Below are positions 42,866 to 63,258 of a stretch of 64,000 nt of DNA, in pieces. Source of the stretch: Bacteroidota bacterium (GTDB lineage Bacteria; Bacteroidota; Ignavibacteria; Kapaibacteriales; UBA2268); contig JAJXYC010000015.1 of assembly GCA_021780815.1 (NCBI GenBank), positions 273,796 through 337,795 on the forward strand. Direction: 5' to 3'. Both the position numbers and the translations under genes were made by a program. Within the stretch, counting starts at the first letter, position 1. Each line of letters starts with the position of its first letter. The notes beneath the pieces are model-generated. The model did no database searches and was not told the origin of the DNA. It saw only the letters and a program-made list of their open reading frames with translations.

Positions 42866-43972
42866 TTACACTATGTTCATCTTAATTGTTCCTAAATAAG
42901 GTCCTGCAATCATACGGCAGAAATAAACTCCTGGTACCAAACGTTTACCTTCGTCATCCATACCATTATAAGTAATTGAATAAGTTCCAGGTTGATATAA
43001 TTCATAATCTATTAAAGTAGCGAACACATCACCACGCATATCATAAACTTCAATTTGAACTTTTTCTTCTTTCGGAATAGAGAATTGAATTGTTGTACTA
43101 CCAGAGAATGGATTAGGATAATTTTGCATAATTTTATATTCGCTTGTACTCTTATTCATATTTTCAATAACACCAGAAGTATGTGGATTTGGGTGGCAAG
43201 TTGAACATTCCATATGAGTAAATACATTTGCTTGTCCCGAAGAACCATGACAAGATAAACAACCATTAACTCCATCAGTATCTTTAAATGTAGCAACAAA
43301 AGTTTTATTGAAATATGCATTAAGAATTTCAACAGTTTTAGCGGCAATATCACCAACTATTCTAGAACAACGTTCTTTACGCTCTGTATCTCCTGTTTTT
43401 TTCTTTGCAACAAAGCACCATTGACTCACTGATGGGTGACATAAAGGGCTACCTGAAACATTGCTTACTAATGGGTCGTTATATTTTTGTACAGTATATT
43501 TTCCTTGAACTGCAAAATCATTTGCAGTTTGAGTAGGCATACTTTCAGTCATATAATAACCCCAAAGTTCATTAATTAAAGCAGTGGAATCGTTTTTATT
43601 AACACACAAACTAATCATAGCTGCACCACCATTTAAAGTACCGCATAAAGTACCCCAAGAAGCACCGCCGCCACGTCCGTAAAGTACAACTTCCATTGGA
43701 ATATTAGTCCAAGGAGCACCTACTGCTTTTTGAAGCAATGTTAATAATGCTCCAAAAACACCTGACGAACAATCTTTATCATTCCAATAAAGGTCATGAC
43801 CAATAATTCTTGCTTGGTCCGGATCTAAAATAGCATAAGTCCATGGCCATGGATAAGTATCGTCTGCAAATATTTTAGTGGCATTCATTCCTGCTACACC
43901 AATTGCAGCACCAAGAGCTATTTTGCCTCCATTTTTTAAAAATTCTCTTTTTGATATTGTAGTAAGTTCCAT
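42866..43972 (-). CDS. Exported Cys-rich protein with two CxxCH heme-c binding motifs and a T9SS C-terminal sorting domain; Tat-like (KR) signal
   Basis: The N-terminus is SKREFLKNGGKIALGAAIGVAGMNA. Heme-binding motifs CLSCH and CSTCH are present. A C_GCAxxG-like segment (LCGTLNGGA) is present. The C-terminal CTD (GVYFCRMIAGPYLGTIKMNIV) is of the Por-secretion type. Confidence 0.6.
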   Translation of the reverse strand: MELTTISKREFLKNGGKIALGAAIGVAGMNATKIFADDTYPWPWTYAILDPDQARIIGHDLYWNDKDCSSGVFGALLTLLQKAVGAPWTNIPMEVVLYGRGGGASWGTLCGTLNGGAAMISLCVNKNDSTALINELWGYYMTESMPTQTANDFAVQGKYTVQKYNDPLVSNVSGSPLCHPSVSQWCFVAKKKTGDTERKERCSRIVGDIAAKTVEILNAYFNKTFVATFKDTDGVNGCLSCHGSSGQANVFTHMECSTCHPNPHTSGVIENMNKSTSEYKIMQNYPNPFSGSTTIQFSIPKEEKVQIEVYDMRGDVFATLIDYELYQPGTYSITYNGMDDEGKRLVPGVYFCRMIAGPYLGTIKMNIV

Positions 43973-44480
43973 ATTTTATAATCCTCCAAAAAAAATGTAA
44001 TTTTTATAAAAACAAAAATAAAATAATGATTTTAAATAACAATGATAATTATTAAAAATTAATTATTTATGTAATCTTAAAATATTTTATAGTCAATTTT
44101 AAATCAATTCATTTAGTTGAATAAATGTATTTCTTTGTATTTAAACAAATTAAATTATTTAAATATATCCATTCAAAAAATAGTAAAAGTCATTATTTAT
44201 TTAAATTTTATTAAAATTAAATAATAAATTAATTTTATAATACTCTTTAATTATTAAAATTAATTAATTGATAATTTAAAAATATAAAAAATTTCAACCA
44301 TTATTTTCACATATTATATTAGAAATAGTTGAGTATTGCTCTTAAATCAACCTTTGCAAAATATTAATAAGATAAATTAAAAAGTCAAACAAATTTTTAA
44401 TATTTTTTTTAACAATTTTTTGTAGTTTGGAAAAAAAATATTAAATTGCTTTTTTCTTTGTTAAAAATTCTGGGGGGAAA

Positions 44481-44912
44481 ATGCAAAGAATTGAAATCAT
44501 ATCAAATGATTCAGTCCAAGAAAATGATATTTTATTACCACTTTACAGTATGAGTGTATCGGCGGGAATTCCTTTACCTGTTGAAGAGGATATTGAAGAT
44601 GAAATTGATTTAAACTCATTTTTGATTCAGCACCCAAATTCTACATTCTTCGCCAAAGTAATTGGAGATGCAAAAAATTTTGAAGGAATTCGAGATGGAG
44701 ATTTACTTATAGTAGATTCATTTTGTCGTCCAGAAGATGGGAAATTAATTCTGGTGCAAATAAACCACCATCTTGCAATTCGTCGTTATAGAGTTTTTGA
44801 AGGGACTGAATACTTTGAAACTCCTTTAGGACAATTTATCCCGATTCAATCTAATTTTTTTGATACTTTAGATTTCATTGGTGTGGTGAGGCATTTAATA
44901 CATTCTTATTAG
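44481..44912 (+). CDS. UmuD-like S24 peptidase-fold protein that keeps the Ala-Gly cleavage site but lacks the catalytic Ser and Lys (pseudo-peptidase)
   Basis: The product aligns along its whole length with E. coli UmuD. [39 protein letters not shown] corresponds to [39 protein letters not shown]. The nucleophile GDSM is replaced by GDAK and the general-base Lys position reads R (LAIRRYRV). The cleavage-site context [10 protein letters not shown] is retained. Confidence 0.7.
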   Translation: [143 protein letters not shown]

Positions 44913-45001
44913 TTTTTTATTGATATATATATTTTTTATTTTGTTGTGCTTAATGGCACAATATTTGTTATTCTCTTATATAAAATTAATTTAAAAACAG
45001 T

Positions 45002-45430
45002 ATGAAAGCAACACCAAAAGGCAAAATTAGACAAAAATACGGATTTGAAGCTCCTCTTATTCCTGCTAAAACTACAAAGAATAAGGATTATGAAATTTCT
45101 TTGCAAAGTTTGAATGAGAAGTTTAATATTTATAATTTATTAAAAGGCAATCCCCGAGATTATTATTTGGTGCGTGTAAATGGTGAAAGTATGATAAATA
45201 TCGGTATTAACGATGGTGATACTTTAATTGTTAATGCTAACAAACAACCTCAAAACGATAGTATTGTTATTGCCTCATTAAATGGAGAAATGCTTGTCAA
45301 AACATTAAAATTAATTGATGGTAAAATTTATTTAATAGCACAAAATGATAAATTTCTACCAATTGAAATTTTCCCAGAAGAACATTTCCAAATCAAAGGA
45401 ATTGTAGAGTTTGTAATACACAATTTATAA
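45002..45430 (+). CDS. UmuD-like S24 peptidase with intact Ser/Lys dyad but non-canonical cleavage-site region
   Basis: VRVNGESMINIGINDGDTLIVNA carries the Ser nucleophile and GEMLVKTLKL carries the Lys. The N-terminal region (QKYGFEAPLIPA) has Tyr rather than Ala/Cys before the Gly. No HTH domain is present. Confidence 0.7.
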   Translation: MKATPKGKIRQKYGFEAPLIPAKTTKNKDYEISLQSLNEKFNIYNLLKGNPRDYYLVRVNGESMINIGINDGDTLIVNANKQPQNDSIVIASLNGEMLVKTLKLIDGKIYLIAQNDKFLPIEIFPEEHFQIKGIVEFVIHNL

Positions 45431-45480
45431 CTCAAATTCATATTGGTATTTGTATTATTTATATTAACAAAATAAGAGAT

Positions 45481-47373
45481 TTAATCTGCGTTGTTTTTGA
45501 AATAATCCAAAATTTGATTTGTATCTTTTTCAGAAACTATTTCTTTTAATTGCTCAAAATTTGCTTGCCGAATTTGCTTGACAGAGCCAAAATGCTTAAT
45601 CAGTTTTTCAGACTTCTTTTTTCCAATACCTTGGATTTCTTCAATTTGAGTATGAATAATTCTTTTTTCACGTAATTTGCGATGATAAGTAATAGCAAAT
45701 CTATGTGCTTCATCTCGTATCTGCTGTAATAACCGCAAGCTACTTGAACTTTTGGGTAAAATCAAAGAATCAGATTTTTCTGGGAAGAAAATTTCTTCTA
45801 ATCTTTTTGCAAGACCTATAATTGTAATTTTGTTTTGAATTTGCAATTCATTAAGAACTTCCCAAGCAGCAGAAAGTTGCCCTTTTCCCCCATCAATAAC
45901 AATCAAATCAGGAAGTTGAGATTTTTCACTTAAAAGTCGTGTATACCTTCTCATTACAACTTCTTTCATAGTAGCAAAATCATCATTCTTATTCACTGTT
46001 TCATTCTTGAATTTTCTATAATCGGATTTCTTCGGCTTACCATTTTCAAAAACAACTAATGAAGAAACCAAGTCAGAACCTTGAATATGCGAATTATCAA
46101 AACATTCCATTCTTACAGGTGCTTTATTTAAATGTAAATCTCTTTGTAAAGAAAGAACAGCTTTGGAAATAATTTTTTCTCTACTTTCTAAAGCGGCAAT
46201 ATGGTCTTGCAATATCAATTCAGCATTAGAATTAGCCATCTCAATTAATTTACGCTTTTCTCCAATTTGTGGTATACTAACATTAACTTGTGATTTAAAC
46301 TTTTTTTTCAGCCAATCTGTAATATACTCTAAATCTTCTGGTTCAGTAGGTAAAAATATCTCGTTAGGTAAGAACTCATTATTGATATACCAATTTTCAA
46401 TAGTTTTTTGGATAATTTCACTGCTATCTGCTTGCAACAAGTTTTTAATAATAAAATGTTTTCTCCCGAGCAGTTTCCCTTCCCGTACAGTAAAAATTAC
46501 TGTGCATACAAAATCATCTAATGCTGCCATTCCAAACACATCTCTATTTTTTAAATCTGTTGAAACGATTTTTTGATTTGATGAAAAGTCTTTTAATACA
46601 TATAATTTATCTCTAATTTCTTTGGCTTCTTCGAACTTCATTTCTTCTGCTAATTTATCCATTTGACTTTCAATAAACTTTTCTACTTCCTTTGTTTTCC
46701 CAAGCAAAATTTGAATACCTTTTTTTATATTTTCATTATATTGCTCTTGTGAAATATAACTTACGCAAGGTGCTTGACATTTATGAATATGATAATCTAA
46801 ACATACTTTAAATTTATCTTTTTGAATGCTGTCTTTGGTCAATTTTAAATTACAACTTCTCACATAAAACAAGCTTCTGATAATTTTTAACATATTTTTC
46901 ATTAATCGCAAATCGGTATAAGGTCCAAAATATTTCGCACCATCTTTAACTAACCTACGAGTAGAAAAAATTTTAGGGAACTCTTCGTTTGTTACTTTAA
47001 TATAAGGAAAAGTCTTATCATCTTTAAGCAAGATATTATATTTTGGTTTATATTTCTTAATTAAATTATCTTCAAGAATAAAAGCTTCATTTTCAGTATC
47101 TACAACTATATAATCAAAATCGACAATATGCGAAACCATTGCCTTAGTTTTAGCATCTACAAGTCTTCCCTGCTGAAAATATGATTTAATCCTATTTCGC
47201 AAATTTTTTGCTTTTCCAACATAGATAATTTTATTATCTTTATTTTTATGTAAATACACTCCCGGTTTAGTTGTTAAATTCTTAATTTTTTCTAAAAGTT
47301 GATTGCTAATTCCTTCTATGAATTCGATTTTTTCTTCTAAAAGAGATTGCTTGATATTATTAGGAATTTCCAT
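45481..47373 (-). CDS. uvrC: Excinuclease ABC subunit C
   Basis: The GIY-YIG N-terminus PGVYLHKNKDNKIIYVGKAKNLRNRIKSYF is present. A UvrBC-interaction region, an RNaseH-like endonuclease domain and a C-terminal HhH (IQGIGKKKSEKLIKHFGSV) follow. Confidence 0.9.
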   Translation of the reverse strand: MEIPNNIKQSLLEEKIEFIEGISNQLLEKIKNLTTKPGVYLHKNKDNKIIYVGKAKNLRNRIKSYFQQGRLVDAKTKAMVSHIVDFDYIVVDTENEAFILEDNLIKKYKPKYNILLKDDKTFPYIKVTNEEFPKIFSTRRLVKDGAKYFGPYTDLRLMKNMLKIIRSLFYVRSCNLKLTKDSIQKDKFKVCLDYHIHKCQAPCVSYISQEQYNENIKKGIQILLGKTKEVEKFIESQMDKLAEEMKFEEAKEIRDKLYVLKDFSSNQKIVSTDLKNRDVFGMAALDDFVCTVIFTVREGKLLGRKHFIIKNLLQADSSEIIQKTIENWYINNEFLPNEIFLPTEPEDLEYITDWLKKKFKSQVNVSIPQIGEKRKLIEMANSNAELILQDHIAALESREKIISKAVLSLQRDLHLNKAPVRMECFDNSHIQGSDLVSSLVVFENGKPKKSDYRKFKNETVNKNDDFATMKEVVMRRYTRLLSEKSQLPDLIVIDGGKGQLSAAWEVLNELQIQNKITIIGLAKRLEEIFFPEKSDSLILPKSSSSLRLLQQIRDEAHRFAITYHRKLREKRIIHTQIEEIQGIGKKKSEKLIKHFGSVKQIRQANFEQLKEIVSEKDTNQILDYFKNNAD

Positions 47374-47393: not shown

Positions 47394-47807
47394 CTAAAAT
47401 GCTCTCCATTTGGGAACTACAAAGTTAGGTTCCTCTATATAAACTTTACCGTTCATTTCCATAATGTTAAAGGTTTGGAGACTCTTAATTCCAACTTCTT
47501 GATTAATGTTTTCACCTGTTTGCAAAAGATAAGTCCACCCGTGTTCAGGGCAAGTGACAGTCCCATCTTTAATAAAACCTTCAAAAATTCTATCAATATG
47601 TTTATGTGGGCAGATATTAGATAAGCAATATAAATTATTATTTACATAAAAGACTGCAACTTGGTAATCAAAATCCTCCCCTAATTGAACTTTTATGCCT
47701 TTATTTTTAACTAGAACTTCAATATTTACAATTTCCCAAAAAACTTTATTGTCATATTGTATTTTGGGAAAATCATAGAAGCCAAGATTATCAATATTTT
47801 TTTCCAT
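47394..47807 (-). CDS. Rieske [2Fe-2S] domain protein (NirD-like small ferredoxin subunit)
   Basis: The CPH and CPEHG cluster-binding motifs are present. Confidence 0.7.
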   Translation of the reverse strand: MEKNIDNLGFYDFPKIQYDNKVFWEIVNIEVLVKNKGIKVQLGEDFDYQVAVFYVNNNLYCLSNICPHKHIDRIFEGFIKDGTVTCPEHGWTYLLQTGENINQEVGIKSLQTFNIMEMNGKVYIEEPNFVVPKWRAF

Positions 47808-47810
47808 AGA

Positions 47811-48239
47811 TTAATGAGGAATTTTAAAAACTAATCTAAAACAAGTGCCTTCACTACTTGTAGAAATTTCAAATTTATCAGATAAGCTTTGCATAATGAA
47901 AATACCACGGCCACTATCTTTCAATAGATTTTCTTCTTTCGTGCAATCTTCTAATTCATCAGGGTCAAATCCGCCGCCTTCATCTTGAACAACAATATCT
48001 AACAATTCATTCATATAAGTAACTTCAAATTTTACTTTTTTATTTATTTGGTAATGATTCCCGTGAGAAATTGCATTGTTAATTGCTTCTGTGATTGCTA
48101 CCAAAATATTAAAATAGCTATCTTTAGAAATATTAAATCTATTTCTAATTTTTTCAATAATATTTTCAGCTATGTCTAAAGAAGATTGTTCGCTTGGTAA
48201 TATTACTTTCTCATTATAATAATTTTCTTCCATTAGCAA
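47811..48239 (-). CDS. RsbW/SpoIIAB-like anti-sigma-factor serine kinase (HATPase_c)
   Basis: The N-box AITEAINNAISHG and the G-box VQDEGGGFD are present, and the product is 142 aa. Confidence 0.65.
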   Translation of the reverse strand: MLMEENYYNEKVILPSEQSSLDIAENIIEKIRNRFNISKDSYFNILVAITEAINNAISHGNHYQINKKVKFEVTYMNELLDIVVQDEGGGFDPDELEDCTKEENLLKDSGRGIFIMQSLSDKFEISTSSEGTCFRLVFKIPH

Positions 48240-53609: not shown

Positions 53610-54413
53610 TTAACCTGTTTTTACAATACTATTTATTAATGAAGTAATAATTAAATTCCAACCATCAACTAAAATAAATAAAAGAATTTTAATTGGCAAA
53701 GAAATTAATTGAGGTGGCAAAAGGAACATCCCAAGCGACATTAAAGTGCTGGCTATTATCATATCTAACACCAAAAAAGGAATAAAAAGTAAAAATCCAA
53801 TTTGAAAAGCAACTTTAAGTTCTGAAATTGTATAAGCAGGAATAATCGTCATTGTTGAAACATCATCAATTGATTTAGGTTTATTTGCACCACTTAATTT
53901 TATAAATAATCCTAAATCTTCTTCACGAGTATGCTTCAACATAAAATTTCTAAAAGGTTGGATAATATTATCCACTGCTTGTTGTTGTGTTATTTCTTGT
54001 TTAAGATACGGCTGTATTCCTTTTTGATTAGCTTCATTTAAAACTGGTTGCATAACAAAAAATGTTAAAAATAAAGCCAATCCTGTTAATACTTGAGATG
54101 GTGGTTGAGTAGTTGTTCCTAAAGCTTGTTTTAAGAATTGAAACACAACGATAATTCTTGTAAAACTCGTCATCATTACAAGTATTGACGGCGCTAATGT
54201 TAGAACCGTCATTATTGCCAATATTTGTATTGTTAGCACTAAATCATTAGATTTATCTGCCATATCTACATTTATTGACAACTTCGGTATTGGCATTGTA
54301 TTCTTGGGTATTGCCTCCGCAAAACTAAACGACTGCGCCCCAAGAAAAATCAGTCCAATAATAACCAATAACTTTATAGCAAACCTTGATTTCTCAAGAT
54401 AAAAATGTATCAT
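53610..54413 (-). CDS. fliP: Flagellar biosynthetic protein FliP
   Basis: The signal sequence is followed by the FliP signature TIIPAYTISELKVAFQIGFLLFIPFLVLDMIIASTLMSLGM. Confidence 0.85.
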   Translation of the reverse strand: MIHFYLEKSRFAIKLLVIIGLIFLGAQSFSFAEAIPKNTMPIPKLSINVDMADKSNDLVLTIQILAIMTVLTLAPSILVMMTSFTRIIVVFQFLKQALGTTTQPPSQVLTGLALFLTFFVMQPVLNEANQKGIQPYLKQEITQQQAVDNIIQPFRNFMLKHTREEDLGLFIKLSGANKPKSIDDVSTMTIIPAYTISELKVAFQIGFLLFIPFLVLDMIIASTLMSLGMFLLPPQLISLPIKILLFILVDGWNLIITSLINSIVKTG

Positions 54414-54455: not shown

Positions 54456-54471
54456 ACAACAAATATGCCAA
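54456..54471 (-). promoter_or_regulatory. Candidate sigma-54-type -24/-12 element upstream of fliP (TGGCAT-N5-TTGT)
   Basis: The minus strand reads tggcatatttgttgtt. It lies about 45 nt upstream of the fliP ATG in the correct orientation. The -12 element is TTGT rather than the consensus TTGC. Confidence 0.3.
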
Positions 54472-61050: not shown

Positions 61051-63258
61051 TTATTTTAATATAATGGTAATTGCATCTTCAGGTATAAAAAGCTTCTCAA
61101 TAATAGTTGCAATTCTTGACATACACATTGATGCAGAAATGTTTATATGAATAAAAAGTTCATCATCATTGACTTCTTTAAGATTTTGCCAAACCTTACT
61201 ATCAAAGTTTTTATATCTTTTGGATATCTCTATATCGTTATCTACAATCTCTTTTAATTCACTCCATTCAAGTATAACGTTGTCACGTTTAAATAATTCT
61301 ACTTGATTATCAATAATGAATTGAAAATCGAAATCAGGTTTTACCCGCAGATAATTTAAAAATTTAATGAAAACATCTTGCCATGTATTTACTTTAATAT
61401 GTTCATTGAAAATGATAAGTTCACTTGGCTTATTACCTTCTGCAATATTTCCAGCATCAGTATCTAAGGGGGAAAACAAAGTGGTTTCGTTAATTTGCGT
61501 GTTCCAGTTAGACTTATCTTTATATTCTTCTGGTAATGGAAAAGTATCAAGAAACCAATTTATCAATGTGTCCTGATGCTGTTTAATACTTTCTTCATCC
61601 CATCGTTCTTTATCAAGAACACAAGTTCGGTAATATAGAGAAGATAAGGATAGTTTTCTTTGCTTTTCTTCAAATGCTTTATTCCCAATTTCGCTATTAA
61701 ATTCTGTTAAAATCAAATTACCAATATTGTGTAAGTAATTTTTATGTATTTGTTCGAAATTATTGCCCAAATCTCTTTTCCAATTATCATCTAATTTTTG
61801 AGGCATAATATGTTCAATTGTAATTTTTGGGTCTCGAAAATCAACTGAAACTTTTGAATTGTGTTCTTCTATTTTACCTAATATGAACTTTGAATATTGC
61901 TTTAAATTTTCATAAAAATTCATACTTATGAGTGCGTTTTTAATCTCAAAATCATTTGGAAGCCTTAACCTATAAGACATACCTGTAAGAAGTTCAAGCA
62001 TTGACACTTGCCCTTTTGCTAATTCCTCAATTCTTTTGCTTAATAAAACAATATTTTTATTTTCGCCTTGTGTTAGACCTAATATTCTTCTTCTAATTAA
62101 ATATGTTCTTATTGTTTTCAAAAAGGAAATGAGTAACTCATCGCTGAGTTTTATATTATTTATGGTATATTGATGGTATTCTAACAATCCTAATACAAAA
62201 GGCTTAAAGGCTTCAGATTTGATATCGTGAAAAATATTTCTTAACAATTCTTTAATTTCTTTGTCATTTTTACTATTACTGGAAATGGTATCATTATTAA
62301 TTTCTTGTATAATCCATTTATAACATTTTACATAACGGATAATATCTTGAATAAAATCATTATGGCTTTCAAATGCGTTTTCAACAACAAAATCCTTAAA
62401 TTGTTGGTAAAGTTCCTTTGTATTATTGTCGCTTACAACTTTTAAAGAACTTAATTTTTTATATTGCAAATAATCTCGGAAAAATCTTGAAGTATTTTCT
62501 TGAAAAACATTTTCAATCGATGGATACCAAGTATTTTCATAAATATCAGATTGTTGATCGCTGTTCATTTGTAAAAGCACAAAATTTCTCACAAGATCAG
62601 ATAAAGTAAGTGGCTTACCTAATGAATTAAGAGTTTCAAAAATAATTTGAGGGTCTTCACCTTTGAATGGTCTTTCATCTAAGAAAATTACTGCTACATT
62701 CATTCTTTGTAACGCAATAATATAATGGTCAAAATTCACTTCTTTTCTCAATTCTGAATTTTGCTTAATTAGTTTTTTTAATAACTCATAAGCATTTTTG
62801 ATAATACTTGGCTCAGAAATTTCACCTCCTTTAACTAATTTTATATATGCCTCCCAATCTCTTGTTACTTGTTTTAGTTTAATTTTATCTTGAAATGTCG
62901 ATGCATTATTTATTAAATAATTTTGTGTTATATAATTTTGCTTTTGGTGGTCTTGCTCTAAATCTCTTAAAGCAATCAAAAAAAGTAGTGTTGTTGTTAT
63001 CCTTTGTTGTCCATCAACAATAACAGATTTATTTGCAAAACCAGATTTTTCTTCTTTTATTACAATTGTCCCGAAAAAATGCTCTAATTTATCATTTTGA
63101 TTAGAATCTAATTCGGAATCGATAATCCTAAAAACATCAATAAAGTATCTTTCTATTTCAGGTCGTCCCCACGCAAAAGCTCTTTGAAATGGCGGAATGA
63201 AAAAAGATGTTGCATTTTGTGCTAAAACATCATGAATTGAATGATTTTCTGTTTTCAT
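61051..63258 (-). CDS. GmrSD-like DUF262 + DUF1524 protein (putative type IV modification-dependent restriction endonuclease)
   Basis: The N-terminal DUF262/ParB-like region contains FFIPPFQRAFAWGRPE and DGQQRITT. The C-terminal His-Me finger region contains KITIEHIMPQKL...HNIGNLILT. Confidence 0.75.
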   Translation of the reverse strand: MKTENHSIHDVLAQNATSFFIPPFQRAFAWGRPEIERYFIDVFRIIDSELDSNQNDKLEHFFGTIVIKEEKSGFANKSVIVDGQQRITTTLLFLIALRDLEQDHQKQNYITQNYLINNASTFQDKIKLKQVTRDWEAYIKLVKGGEISEPSIIKNAYELLKKLIKQNSELRKEVNFDHYIIALQRMNVAVIFLDERPFKGEDPQIIFETLNSLGKPLTLSDLVRNFVLLQMNSDQQSDIYENTWYPSIENVFQENTSRFFRDYLQYKKLSSLKVVSDNNTKELYQQFKDFVVENAFESHNDFIQDIIRYVKCYKWIIQEINNDTISSNSKNDKEIKELLRNIFHDIKSEAFKPFVLGLLEYHQYTINNIKLSDELLISFLKTIRTYLIRRRILGLTQGENKNIVLLSKRIEELAKGQVSMLELLTGMSYRLRLPNDFEIKNALISMNFYENLKQYSKFILGKIEEHNSKVSVDFRDPKITIEHIMPQKLDDNWKRDLGNNFEQIHKNYLHNIGNLILTEFNSEIGNKAFEEKQRKLSLSSLYYRTCVLDKERWDEESIKQHQDTLINWFLDTFPLPEEYKDKSNWNTQINETTLFSPLDTDAGNIAEGNKPSELIIFNEHIKVNTWQDVFIKFLNYLRVKPDFDFQFIIDNQVELFKRDNVILEWSELKEIVDNDIEISKRYKNFDSKVWQNLKEVNDDELFIHINISASMCMSRIATIIEKLFIPEDAITIILK

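Follow-up and report, generated by a model that had tools for sequence, protein, structure and literature searches.

Two UmuD-like paralogues that divide a cleavage site and a Ser-Lys dyad between them: a candidate asymmetric heterodimer in Kapabacteria and Ignavibacteria

What function can be served by two adjacent UmuD-like genes that have no gene for a Y-family DNA polymerase beside them? This question is raised by a tandem pair of genes, here termed A and B, in a 64,000-nucleotide stretch of DNA from a Bacteroidota bacterium of the order Kapaibacteriales (GenBank assembly GCA_021780815.1, contig JAJXYC010000015.1, positions 273,796 to 337,795 of the forward strand), which is referred to below in its full length as the window and in whose coordinates all positions are given. 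Our analyses of this pair and of its relatives indicate that protein A has retained the cleavage site of UmuD and lost its catalytic dyad in this genome, and that protein B has retained the dyad and lacks the cleavage site. On the strength of these residue patterns, we consider it reasonably probable that the two genes constitute an operon for an obligate asymmetric UmuD-like heterodimer, in which B would cleave A in trans. The original prediction for this locus, which was made from the DNA letters, had described a umuD-like pair with a convergent uvrC as the next gene; this description is accurate, as its coordinates are right, both open reading frames (ORFs) belong to PF00717, and uvrC is complete. 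The genes concerned and their immediate surroundings are as follows.

Gene A, 44481-44912, forward strand: 143 amino acids (aa), UmuD-like S24 protein (Pfam Peptidase_S24, PF00717)
Gene B, 45002-45430, forward strand: 142 aa, S24 protein resembling UmuD and the LexA C-terminal domain (Pfam PF00717)
uvrC, 45481-47373, reverse strand: convergent with B, an incidental neighbour outside the system, identified by its Pfam domains
Divergent intergenic spacer, 43973-44480, no strand: 508 bp with 13% GC, from composition and an ORF scan
Gene for a C_GCAxxG redox protein secreted by the type IX secretion system, 42866-43972, reverse strand: divergent from gene A across the spacer

Both proteins are members of the Peptidase S24 superfamily, as indicated by their Pfam scores against PF00717 (53 bits, E 3e-14, for A and 79.5 bits, E 2e-22, for B; cut-off 23.3) and by Foldseek, in which the top matches are UmuD' and UmuD. 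Against the NCBIfam model for UmuD (NF007621) they score 75.4 and 89.7 bits, respectively, both under its cut-off of 110. The best match of A among the sequences of the PDB is E. coli UmuD (8gmt_B, E 4e-21), with LexA at E 3e-07, and UmuD is on this comparison clearly its nearest relative; B in such a search is about equally near to the LexA C-terminal domain and to UmuD'. AlphaFold2 models of both proteins superpose on UmuD', that of B with template modelling (TM) scores of 0.85-0.91 (normalised to the target) and a root-mean-square deviation of 1.7-1.8 Å. The N-terminal arms, which comprise at most 40 residues, are modelled with low confidence (mostly low values of the predicted local distance difference test). 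No DNA-binding domain was detected in either protein by Pfam, which finds PF00717 only. Identity between the two proteins is about 20% when they are aligned in full, and it averages about 38% in the core.

Alignment with UmuD places the residues that are central to its self-cleavage at the following codons of the two genes.

GCG GGA, 44562-44567, forward strand: Ala28-Gly29 of A, scissile bond, in ungapped HMMER alignment with UmuD Cys24-Gly25
GCA, 44670-44672, forward strand: Ala64 of A, aligned with Ser60, the nucleophile of UmuD
CGT, 44781-44783, forward strand: Arg101 of A, aligned with Lys97, the general base of UmuD
AGT, 45188-45190, forward strand: Ser63 of B, nucleophile, within GESM
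AAA, 45299-45301, forward strand: Lys100 of B, general base, within VK

Protein A has thus kept the site V-S-Ala28-Gly29-I-P, and it has GDAK and IRR where UmuD has GDSM and VKK. In B, GESM and VK are intact, and the N-terminal arm is devoid of an Ala/Cys-Gly site and carries a conserved motif of its own (MKAxxxxxIKQKYxFEAP). Neither protein joins a cleavage site and a Ser-Lys dyad in one polypeptide. The original prediction had treated both proteins as UmuD homologues, which is upheld with respect to the S24 domain and the UmuD-like fold; what it missed is this complementary split, in which A is without the dyad and B without the cleavage site. We propose from these residues that A is a cleavable, catalytically dead subunit and that B is an active, uncleavable one.

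The generality of this pattern can be judged from a scan with one genome per species, which yielded 80 loci; loci L001-L066 are from Kapabacteria, Ignavibacteria and related Bacteroidota metagenome-assembled genomes (MAGs). All of the loci come from MAGs or metagenomes, and the counts given here and below include related genomes and are not counts of independent events. With family-specific hidden Markov models (HMMs), A followed by B as a tandem on the same strand was found in about 60 of the 66 species-level genomes, and residues were compared in 28 homologues and 62 orthologous loci for A and in 20 homologues and 65 loci for B. The E. coli UmuD sequence served as the ruler for residue positions, and its numbering agrees with that of the PDB alignment. 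Many of the MAGs that carry the pair are titled 'uncultured Hyphomicrobiales' or 'Chloroherpeton', and their A and B genes cluster with loci titled as Kapabacteria or Ignavibacteria; the GC content of these MAGs is similarly low, and the taxonomy of the records looks unreliable.

At the scissile position, Ala-Gly is present in all 62 of the A orthologues, within V-[SAP]-A-G-x-P, and in 13 of the 65 B orthologues, in a variable region of the arm. Serine occupies the nucleophile position in all 65 of the B orthologues and in 15/62 of those of A, the remainder of which have Ala, Asn, Glu, Asp, Phe, Thr or Arg. Lysine at the general-base position is likewise universal in B (65/65) and is found in 48/62 for A, with Arg in the other 14/62. 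Ser63 and Lys100 are also invariant in the 20 homologues of B. When only paired loci are considered, A has Ala-Gly and B has both Ser and Lys in 60 of 60, and Ser is absent from A in 46 of these 60. A rough neighbour-joining tree requires at least 21 state changes in the nucleophile column of A, including at least 10 switches between Ser and other residues. Because this column is variable and the Ala-Gly pair invariant, catalysis in A is essentially unconstrained and its scissile bond is under absolute constraint.

These counts also bear on an explanation by ordinary redundancy, according to which A would be a decaying, functionless duplicate of umuD and B the working UmuD of an unlinked DNA polymerase V (Pol V). 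The loss of catalytic residues from A would suit this explanation, as would the scores of both proteins under the NCBIfam cut-off for UmuD. We nevertheless regard it as very improbable, since A is intact in 62 genomes (141-150 aa) and has 25 invariant columns, among them the whole cleavage-site region and an N-terminal strand, and a scissile bond that is invariant in so broad a clade is not to be expected of a gene in decay. Moreover, B, being without a cleavage site, cannot mature to a UmuD'-like form.

The cleavage of UmuD is intermolecular (PMC9926225; PMC5342242), and in the structure of the RecA*-UmuD2 complex solved by cryo-electron microscopy the inside protomer acts as the enzyme and the outside protomer as the substrate (PMC9926225). 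Ser60 and Lys97, the RecA F203 pocket, and the acidic patch D91/E93 are contributed by the inside protomer, and F18 and the cleavage-site region by the outside protomer, in which the carbonyl of Cys24 lies 3.0 Å from Ser60 of the partner (PMC9926225). Efficient cleavage in trans has also been obtained in an engineered heterodimer of UmuD S60A and an arm-truncated active UmuD (PMC5342242). The positions that are relevant in this complex (UmuD numbering) are distributed between the A and B orthologues as follows.

F18, aromatic, substrate side: A 62/62, B 18/65
V22, substrate side: A 62/62, not conserved in B
A24-G25, substrate side: A 62/62, B 13/65
P27, substrate side: A 62/62, not conserved in B
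P29, substrate side: A 49/62, not conserved in B
V54, enzyme side: replaced by Ala in 57/62 of A, B 65/65
G58, enzyme side: A 57/62, B 65/65
S60, enzyme side: A 15/62, B 65/65
M61, enzyme side: A 17/62, B 65/65
V96, enzyme side: A 33/62 (the rest Ile or Leu), B 65/65
K97, enzyme side: A 48/62, B 65/65
E93, acidic, RecA groove: A 28/62, B 65/65
G92, RecA groove: A 28/62, B 60/65

Because the substrate-side positions are kept in A and the positions of the enzyme side and RecA groove in B, the split of roles, as read from the alignments, reaches past the catalytic residues and parallels the asymmetry between the inside and outside protomers that the solved complex displays. From this correspondence we infer heterodimer formation, trans cleavage, a dependence on RecA and a downstream target, in the following manner. 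B would be the protease, having Ser63/Lys100, the acidic residue of the RecA groove and no scissile bond, and A would be its dedicated substrate, having an intact N-terminal arm with the aromatic anchor and Ala28-Gly29, and Ala64/Arg101 at its own dyad positions. On the filament of RecA and single-stranded DNA, B would occupy the inside position and A the outside position, and B would cut the arm of A in trans. The cut would free a propeptide of 28 residues and give rise to an A'-B complex, analogous to UmuD'-UmuD, that would most likely manage a DNA polymerase (UmuC, DinB or Pol III) whose gene is situated at another place in the genome.

A second line of evidence for cooperation between the two types of module is provided by fused proteins. 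A search of 1.84 billion representative proteins with the family A profile brought up, apart from single-domain relatives, about 17 proteins that have two S24 domains and a length of 220-301 aa. Such fused double-S24 proteins (P0194-P0327; loci L088-L095), with 246-301 aa, are rare and metagenomic. In 16 representative clusters, the N-terminal half has the site (A/C)-G-F-P-S-P in 15, Ser in 3 and Lys in 6, and the C-terminal half has the site in 1 and both Ser and Lys in all 16. The order of the halves is thus that of A followed by B, and the complementarity of the residues matches as well. A umuC homologue lies directly 3' of the fused gene, overlapping it or a few bases off, in 7 of the 7 genes examined, often among mobile-looking genes (viz. 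Fic, DNA methylase, HerA and TnsA-like genes). We take the fused forms as Rosetta-stone evidence, from sequence, that A-like and B-like modules cooperate as a pseudo-dimer. Because all seven of the fused genes examined precede umuC, the asymmetric design is compatible with Pol V, and is in use for Pol V elsewhere.

The pair itself is unlinked to any such polymerase gene. An HMM built from verified UmuC proteins detected no Y-family polymerase of the UmuC/DinB type among all ORFs of at least 60 aa in the window (best E 0.46), a six-frame tblastn search of the window with DinB and UmuC queries gave noise only (best E 0.58) under settings that recovered the positive controls in other loci, and Pfam scans of the remaining sizeable ORFs of the window revealed housekeeping genes and no IMS, DnaE, DnaE2, ImuB or LexA. 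The original prediction that the window holds no polymerase gene is therefore confirmed, and the same trait is conserved in relatives, where umuC follows the A-B pair at none of the 66 loci and a convergent dinB-type gene (359 aa, without DUF4113) is present at two of them (L018 and L056). The term orphan refers here to the 64-kb window and, in the relatives, to up to 10 kb on either side of the pair. Canonical umuD genes recovered by the same scan have umuC as the next gene wherever the contig is long enough. One such canonical cassette from Ignavibacteria (L081-L083), in which a umuD for a 142-aa S24 protein and umuC are followed by genes for an SOS-response-associated peptidase (SRAP) and DinB_2/DinB-family proteins, adjoins a phage-type integrase gene and SduA_C/SMC-like genes and looks like an integrated island.

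The original prediction had drawn from the missing polymerase the suggestion of a role independent of translesion synthesis (TLS), such as SOS-type signalling or the control of a mobile element or toxin, driven by the long AT-rich leader or with a small RNA in 43973-44480. In its favour, no Y-family polymerase is encoded in the window or after the pair in the 66 loci, and UmuD in its uncleaved form has known effects on Pol III and a part in a checkpoint (PMC5342242). However, the genes around the pair are of housekeeping type and differ between loci (viz. rnhA, genes for an MFS transporter, a MiaB-like enzyme and a DUF1460 protein, and uvrC), PADLOC finds no match of the pair to a defence system, collections of phages and plasmids contain no close relatives of the two proteins and only canonical UmuD at 41% identity or less, and the proteins lack a DNA-binding domain. 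The control of a mobile element or toxin is accordingly not supported, and the pair is a chromosomal stand-alone operon in housekeeping surroundings. The examined fused analogues, all of them linked to umuC, argue by analogy for a polymerase-related function, and a TLS-independent role is less favoured; together with what the leader shows (see below), we judge it quite unlikely.

The uvrC gene, which encodes a complete protein by Pfam (GIY-YIG, UVR, two RNase H-like domains and HhH), does lie next to the pair in the window as predicted; the position is not conserved, as uvrC adjoins the pair only in contigs of the same organism and not among the 66 related loci. Directly upstream of uvrC on the same strand are genes for a Rieske-type [2Fe-2S] protein and an anti-sigma-factor-like HATPase_c_2 kinase (47394-48239, reverse strand), and the gaps of 3 and 20 nt between these genes and uvrC make uvrC look like a part of their operon. 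In 21 of 64 loci (L011, L013, L018, L019, L026, L031-L033, L035, L036, L038, L042, L044-L046, L048, L049, L055, L056, L065 and L066), a gene for RNase HI, assigned by eye from sequence motifs, is divergent from A and shares its promoter region. Neither uvrC nor rnhA was retained as a functional partner, uvrC being adjacent in this organism only and rnhA being explained most simply by synteny within sub-clades; the divergent arrangement of rnhA may mean no more than synteny, or it may point to a connection with replication and repair. Elsewhere in the window, a gene for a GmrSD-type restriction endonuclease with GmrSD_N and GmrSD_C domains is found at 61051-63258 (reverse strand), the target of which would be modified DNA.

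The regions upstream of the two genes provide some indications of how they are expressed. The elements identified there, and one similar motif elsewhere in the window, are as follows.

TAAATTGC, 44442-44449, forward strand: promoter-like box (TAnnTTGC / TATATT type) that precedes the G-run by about 22 nt, within a block conserved among the 10 closest loci when these are aligned
GGGGGG run, 44472-44477, forward strand: 3 nt before the ATG of A, Shine-Dalgarno-like
Hairpin TGTGC-TTAATG-GCACA with T-rich tract, 44942-44963, forward strand: terminator-like, in the A-B spacer, from a terminator scan
TGGCACAATATTTGTT, 44954-44969, forward strand: sigma-54-type -24/-12-like motif (GGCAY-N5-TTG), 47 nt upstream of B
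TGGCATATTTGTTGT, 54457-54469, reverse strand: -24/-12-like motif, 44 nt upstream of fliP (53610-54413, reverse strand)

The region of about 500 bp in front of A had been predicted to be extremely AT-rich and free of ORFs. Its size (508 bp), its GC content of 13% (10-12% in the centre, compared with 29.5% for the window) and the lack of any ORF of 40 aa or more within 43973-44480 agree with this; its AT-richness is only moderately unusual, as it is the fourth longest intergenic region of the window and the other intergenic regions have 14-28% GC. The further proposal of a long regulatory leader or a small RNA in this region was rejected on account of its unconserved length and sequence, the lack of an Rfam match and the absence of real repeats. 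In 62 loci, the spacer that precedes A ranges from 3 to 731 bp with a median of 179 bp, and it measures 140 bp in the closest relative (L001); in a blastn comparison with more than 90 loci, 44431-44478, i.e., the last 50 nt or so before A, is the only part that aligns to relatives (L001 and L005). No Rfam match was obtained in the spacer at the gathering threshold or at E<=1, and its repeats are AT low-complexity pairs only. The known Bacteroidota LexA/SOS motifs (CTAA-N5-TTAG and GGA-N5-TCC) are not evident in the conserved block, and no operator was identified.

Within the conserved block, the TAAATTGC box is a putative promoter; many other loci have an analogous TATATT/TAnnTTGCA box that precedes the G-run by 6-25 nt. 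Gene A is characterised by a run of 5-7 G residues: in 46/62 loci, GGGGG is found in the 120 nt that precede A, versus 2.4% of 636 other genes, and in about 1 Mb of related DNA a G-run followed after 3-12 nt by a start codon is hardly seen at any gene other than A. In the window as a whole, GGGGG is present 18 times, versus 20 expected by chance, and the run before A is the sole copy that fronts a gene. The run lies at -9/-10 in about half of the loci and 30-88 nt upstream in the rest, a few to about 25 nt after a TATATT-like box; a leader peptide following the far-upstream runs was considered and discarded, since neither the reading frame nor the start codon agrees from locus to locus. In 24 of 53 loci, versus 9.5 expected from shuffled flanks, the run is flanked by short complementary arms (TTC...GAA and longer), which may present it in a hairpin loop; this enrichment is modest, with a mean z-score of -0.3 and loci that are phylogenetically non-independent. 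A second motif, (C)AGCATAAA, is also enriched upstream of A (31% versus 2%). The G-run is probably a strong Shine-Dalgarno-like element for ribosome docking, in genomes that otherwise rarely use one.

That the pair might be a transcriptional regulator of the SOS regulon, comparable to LexA or UmuDAb, is suggested by the observation that Bacteroidota lack canonical LexA and use non-canonical S24 repressors (PMC8565304), and the N-terminal arm of B is basic. Yet neither protein has a helix-turn-helix (HTH) or other DNA-binding domain, the arms being short and of low confidence, the known Bacteroidota regulators carry HTH_3, and those neighbouring dinB and S24 genes that were checked have no such G-run as A in their upstream regions. 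We consider such a regulator to be the least probable of the explanations discussed here, and conclude that neither A nor B is a LexA or UmuDAb-type repressor.

In the A-B spacer, the terminator-like hairpin overlaps the -24-like element and could attenuate or partly terminate transcription. A compensatory change (ATGC/GCAT) preserves its stem in the two closest relatives, L001 and L005, beyond which it is not conserved. The motif represented by TGGCACAATATTTGTT is more widespread: GGCA[CT]N5TTG is found within 130 nt upstream of B in 24/65 loci, versus 0.56% per random window of 130 nt (about 66 times the background), and upstream of A in 0/62. This sigma-54-type motif (YGGCAYAATAWTTGC) is essentially confined to loci in which the A-B spacer is about 35-117 nt long. 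Its sequence and distribution suggest that B may have its own, separately controlled promoter in part of the clade. In the window, fliP heads a flagellar export operon (fliP, fliR-like Bac_export_1 and flhB), and the TGGCATATTTGTTGT motif in front of it is consistent with sigma-54-dependent flagellar genes in this organism.

A broader picture, which we offer as a tentative possibility only, can be drawn from these elements. In it, A and B would be a RecA*-triggered proteolytic switch freed from Pol V, in a lineage without canonical LexA or a linked umuC; B would perhaps be under a sigma-54-type promoter, the G-run in the 5' UTR of A would add translational control peculiar to this operon, and A'-B would act directly on the replisome or on DinB as a DNA-damage checkpoint or polymerase manager.

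Several observations weigh against an obligate heterodimer in which B cleaves A. Some A orthologues may still be active, as Ser is retained in 15 of 62, in 12 of them as Gly-x-Ser together with the Lys, and some B proteins might be cleavable, as 13 of 65 have Ala-Gly in the variable arm, four of them as KAGKP. No polymerase partner is linked to the pair, umuC never following it in the 66 loci, unlike in the fused forms. Because a sigma-54-like motif and a terminator-like hairpin lie between A and B, in about one-third of the loci, the two genes would be separately expressible, which fits a strict 1:1 co-production less neatly. Finally, heterodimerisation and cleavage are deduced from sequence patterns, and the conservation of Ala-Gly in A could reflect non-cleaved binding in the cleft of B.

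This last point leads to a different account, in which A is a pseudo-substrate that is never cleaved, its V-S-A-G-x-P arm plugging the active site of B as a regulatory plug or adaptor, and the real substrate of B is a third protein, e.g., a repressor unable to cleave itself. A perfect active site in B, which has no site of its own, and the substrate determinants retained in A are both compatible with this account, as is the finding that L005 and L060 encode S24 proteins of 203-213 aa close to the pair. These proteins, encoded 1.5-2 kb from the pair (L005, 11746-12387, reverse strand; L060, 12013-12624, forward strand), have an N-terminal domain of about 110 residues that Pfam does not recognise, and they are candidate LexA-like regulators of the clade. 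On the other hand, the Ala-Gly is invariant in all 62 A orthologues, when substitutions that prevent cleavage would be tolerated in a plug or even favoured there; (A/C)-G is also retained by the fused proteins of umuC operons, and no third-party substrate is conserved in the neighbourhood. We hold the pseudo-substrate account to be unlikely, and trans cleavage of A by B remains the reading that we prefer.

If the heterodimer is formed as proposed, the A-B pair would be nature's own experiment on cleavage in trans. The textbook example of a protein that is protease and substrate in one is UmuD, and its asymmetric cleavage in trans on the RecA filament has been seen structurally only recently; independent evolutionary support for this mechanism would come from an asymmetry that is fixed in two genes here and in a fused pseudo-dimer elsewhere. 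The pair would also be an example of enzyme/substrate subfunctionalisation after duplication, in which each paralogue keeps one half-function, and it would offer a cleaner system for studies of RecA*-dependent cleavage and of the function of the arm, with one arm, one active site and no homodimer background. A conserved, unfused pair without an adjacent polymerase gene bears further on the DNA-damage responses of the poorly studied Kapabacteria/Ignavibacteria. It also reveals a problem of annotation, since both genes are currently annotated by pipelines as 'DNA polymerase V' or as 'S24 family peptidase', which hides the distinction between A and B. A natural split, tandem or fused asymmetric UmuD, or an orphan or Kapabacteria UmuD, was not found described in the open-access literature searched, which is not proof of absence, and the fused proteins appear to be undescribed 'covalent UmuD pseudo-dimers'.

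Among the known systems, E. coli UmuD/UmuD' is similar to A and B in its size of about 140 aa, in the absence of a DNA-binding domain and in the same C-terminal beta fold, and its (A/C)-G site in the N-terminal arm is shared by A and not by B. It is cleaved in trans within a dimer, asymmetrically on the RecA filament (PMC9926225). In E. coli, however, one gene serves both roles, whereas here the roles are split over two paralogues and umuC is not next to them; A and B stand apart from UmuD in their scores under the cut-off, in the lack of a dyad plus site in one chain and in the lack of a umuC operon. S24 proteins in non-standard roles are also known from lineages without LexA, viz. UmuDAb/DdrR of Acinetobacter and the non-canonical LexA of Bacteroidota (a CI-like HTH with S24); in contrast to A and B, which are without DNA-binding domains, UmuDAb and the non-canonical LexA have such domains and are self-cleaving single proteins that act as repressors. 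The fused double-S24 proteins have the same order and division of labour as A followed by B, with a cleavable and mostly dead module at the N-terminus and an active, uncleavable one at the C-terminus, but they are single polypeptides with umuC next to them (7/7 examined) and often in a mobile-looking context, whereas A and B are encoded by two genes in a housekeeping context without umuC. The closest parallel in logic is provided by engineered heterodimers of UmuD S60A with non-cleavable or arm-truncated UmuD (McDonald et al. 1998/1999, as cited in PMC9926225; PMC5342242), in which, as far as these citing papers relate, a dead cleavable subunit is cut by an active uncleavable one, as is proposed for A and B. 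Those heterodimers are laboratory mutants of one protein, whereas the A-B pair is natural, fixed and conserved in about 60 genomes.

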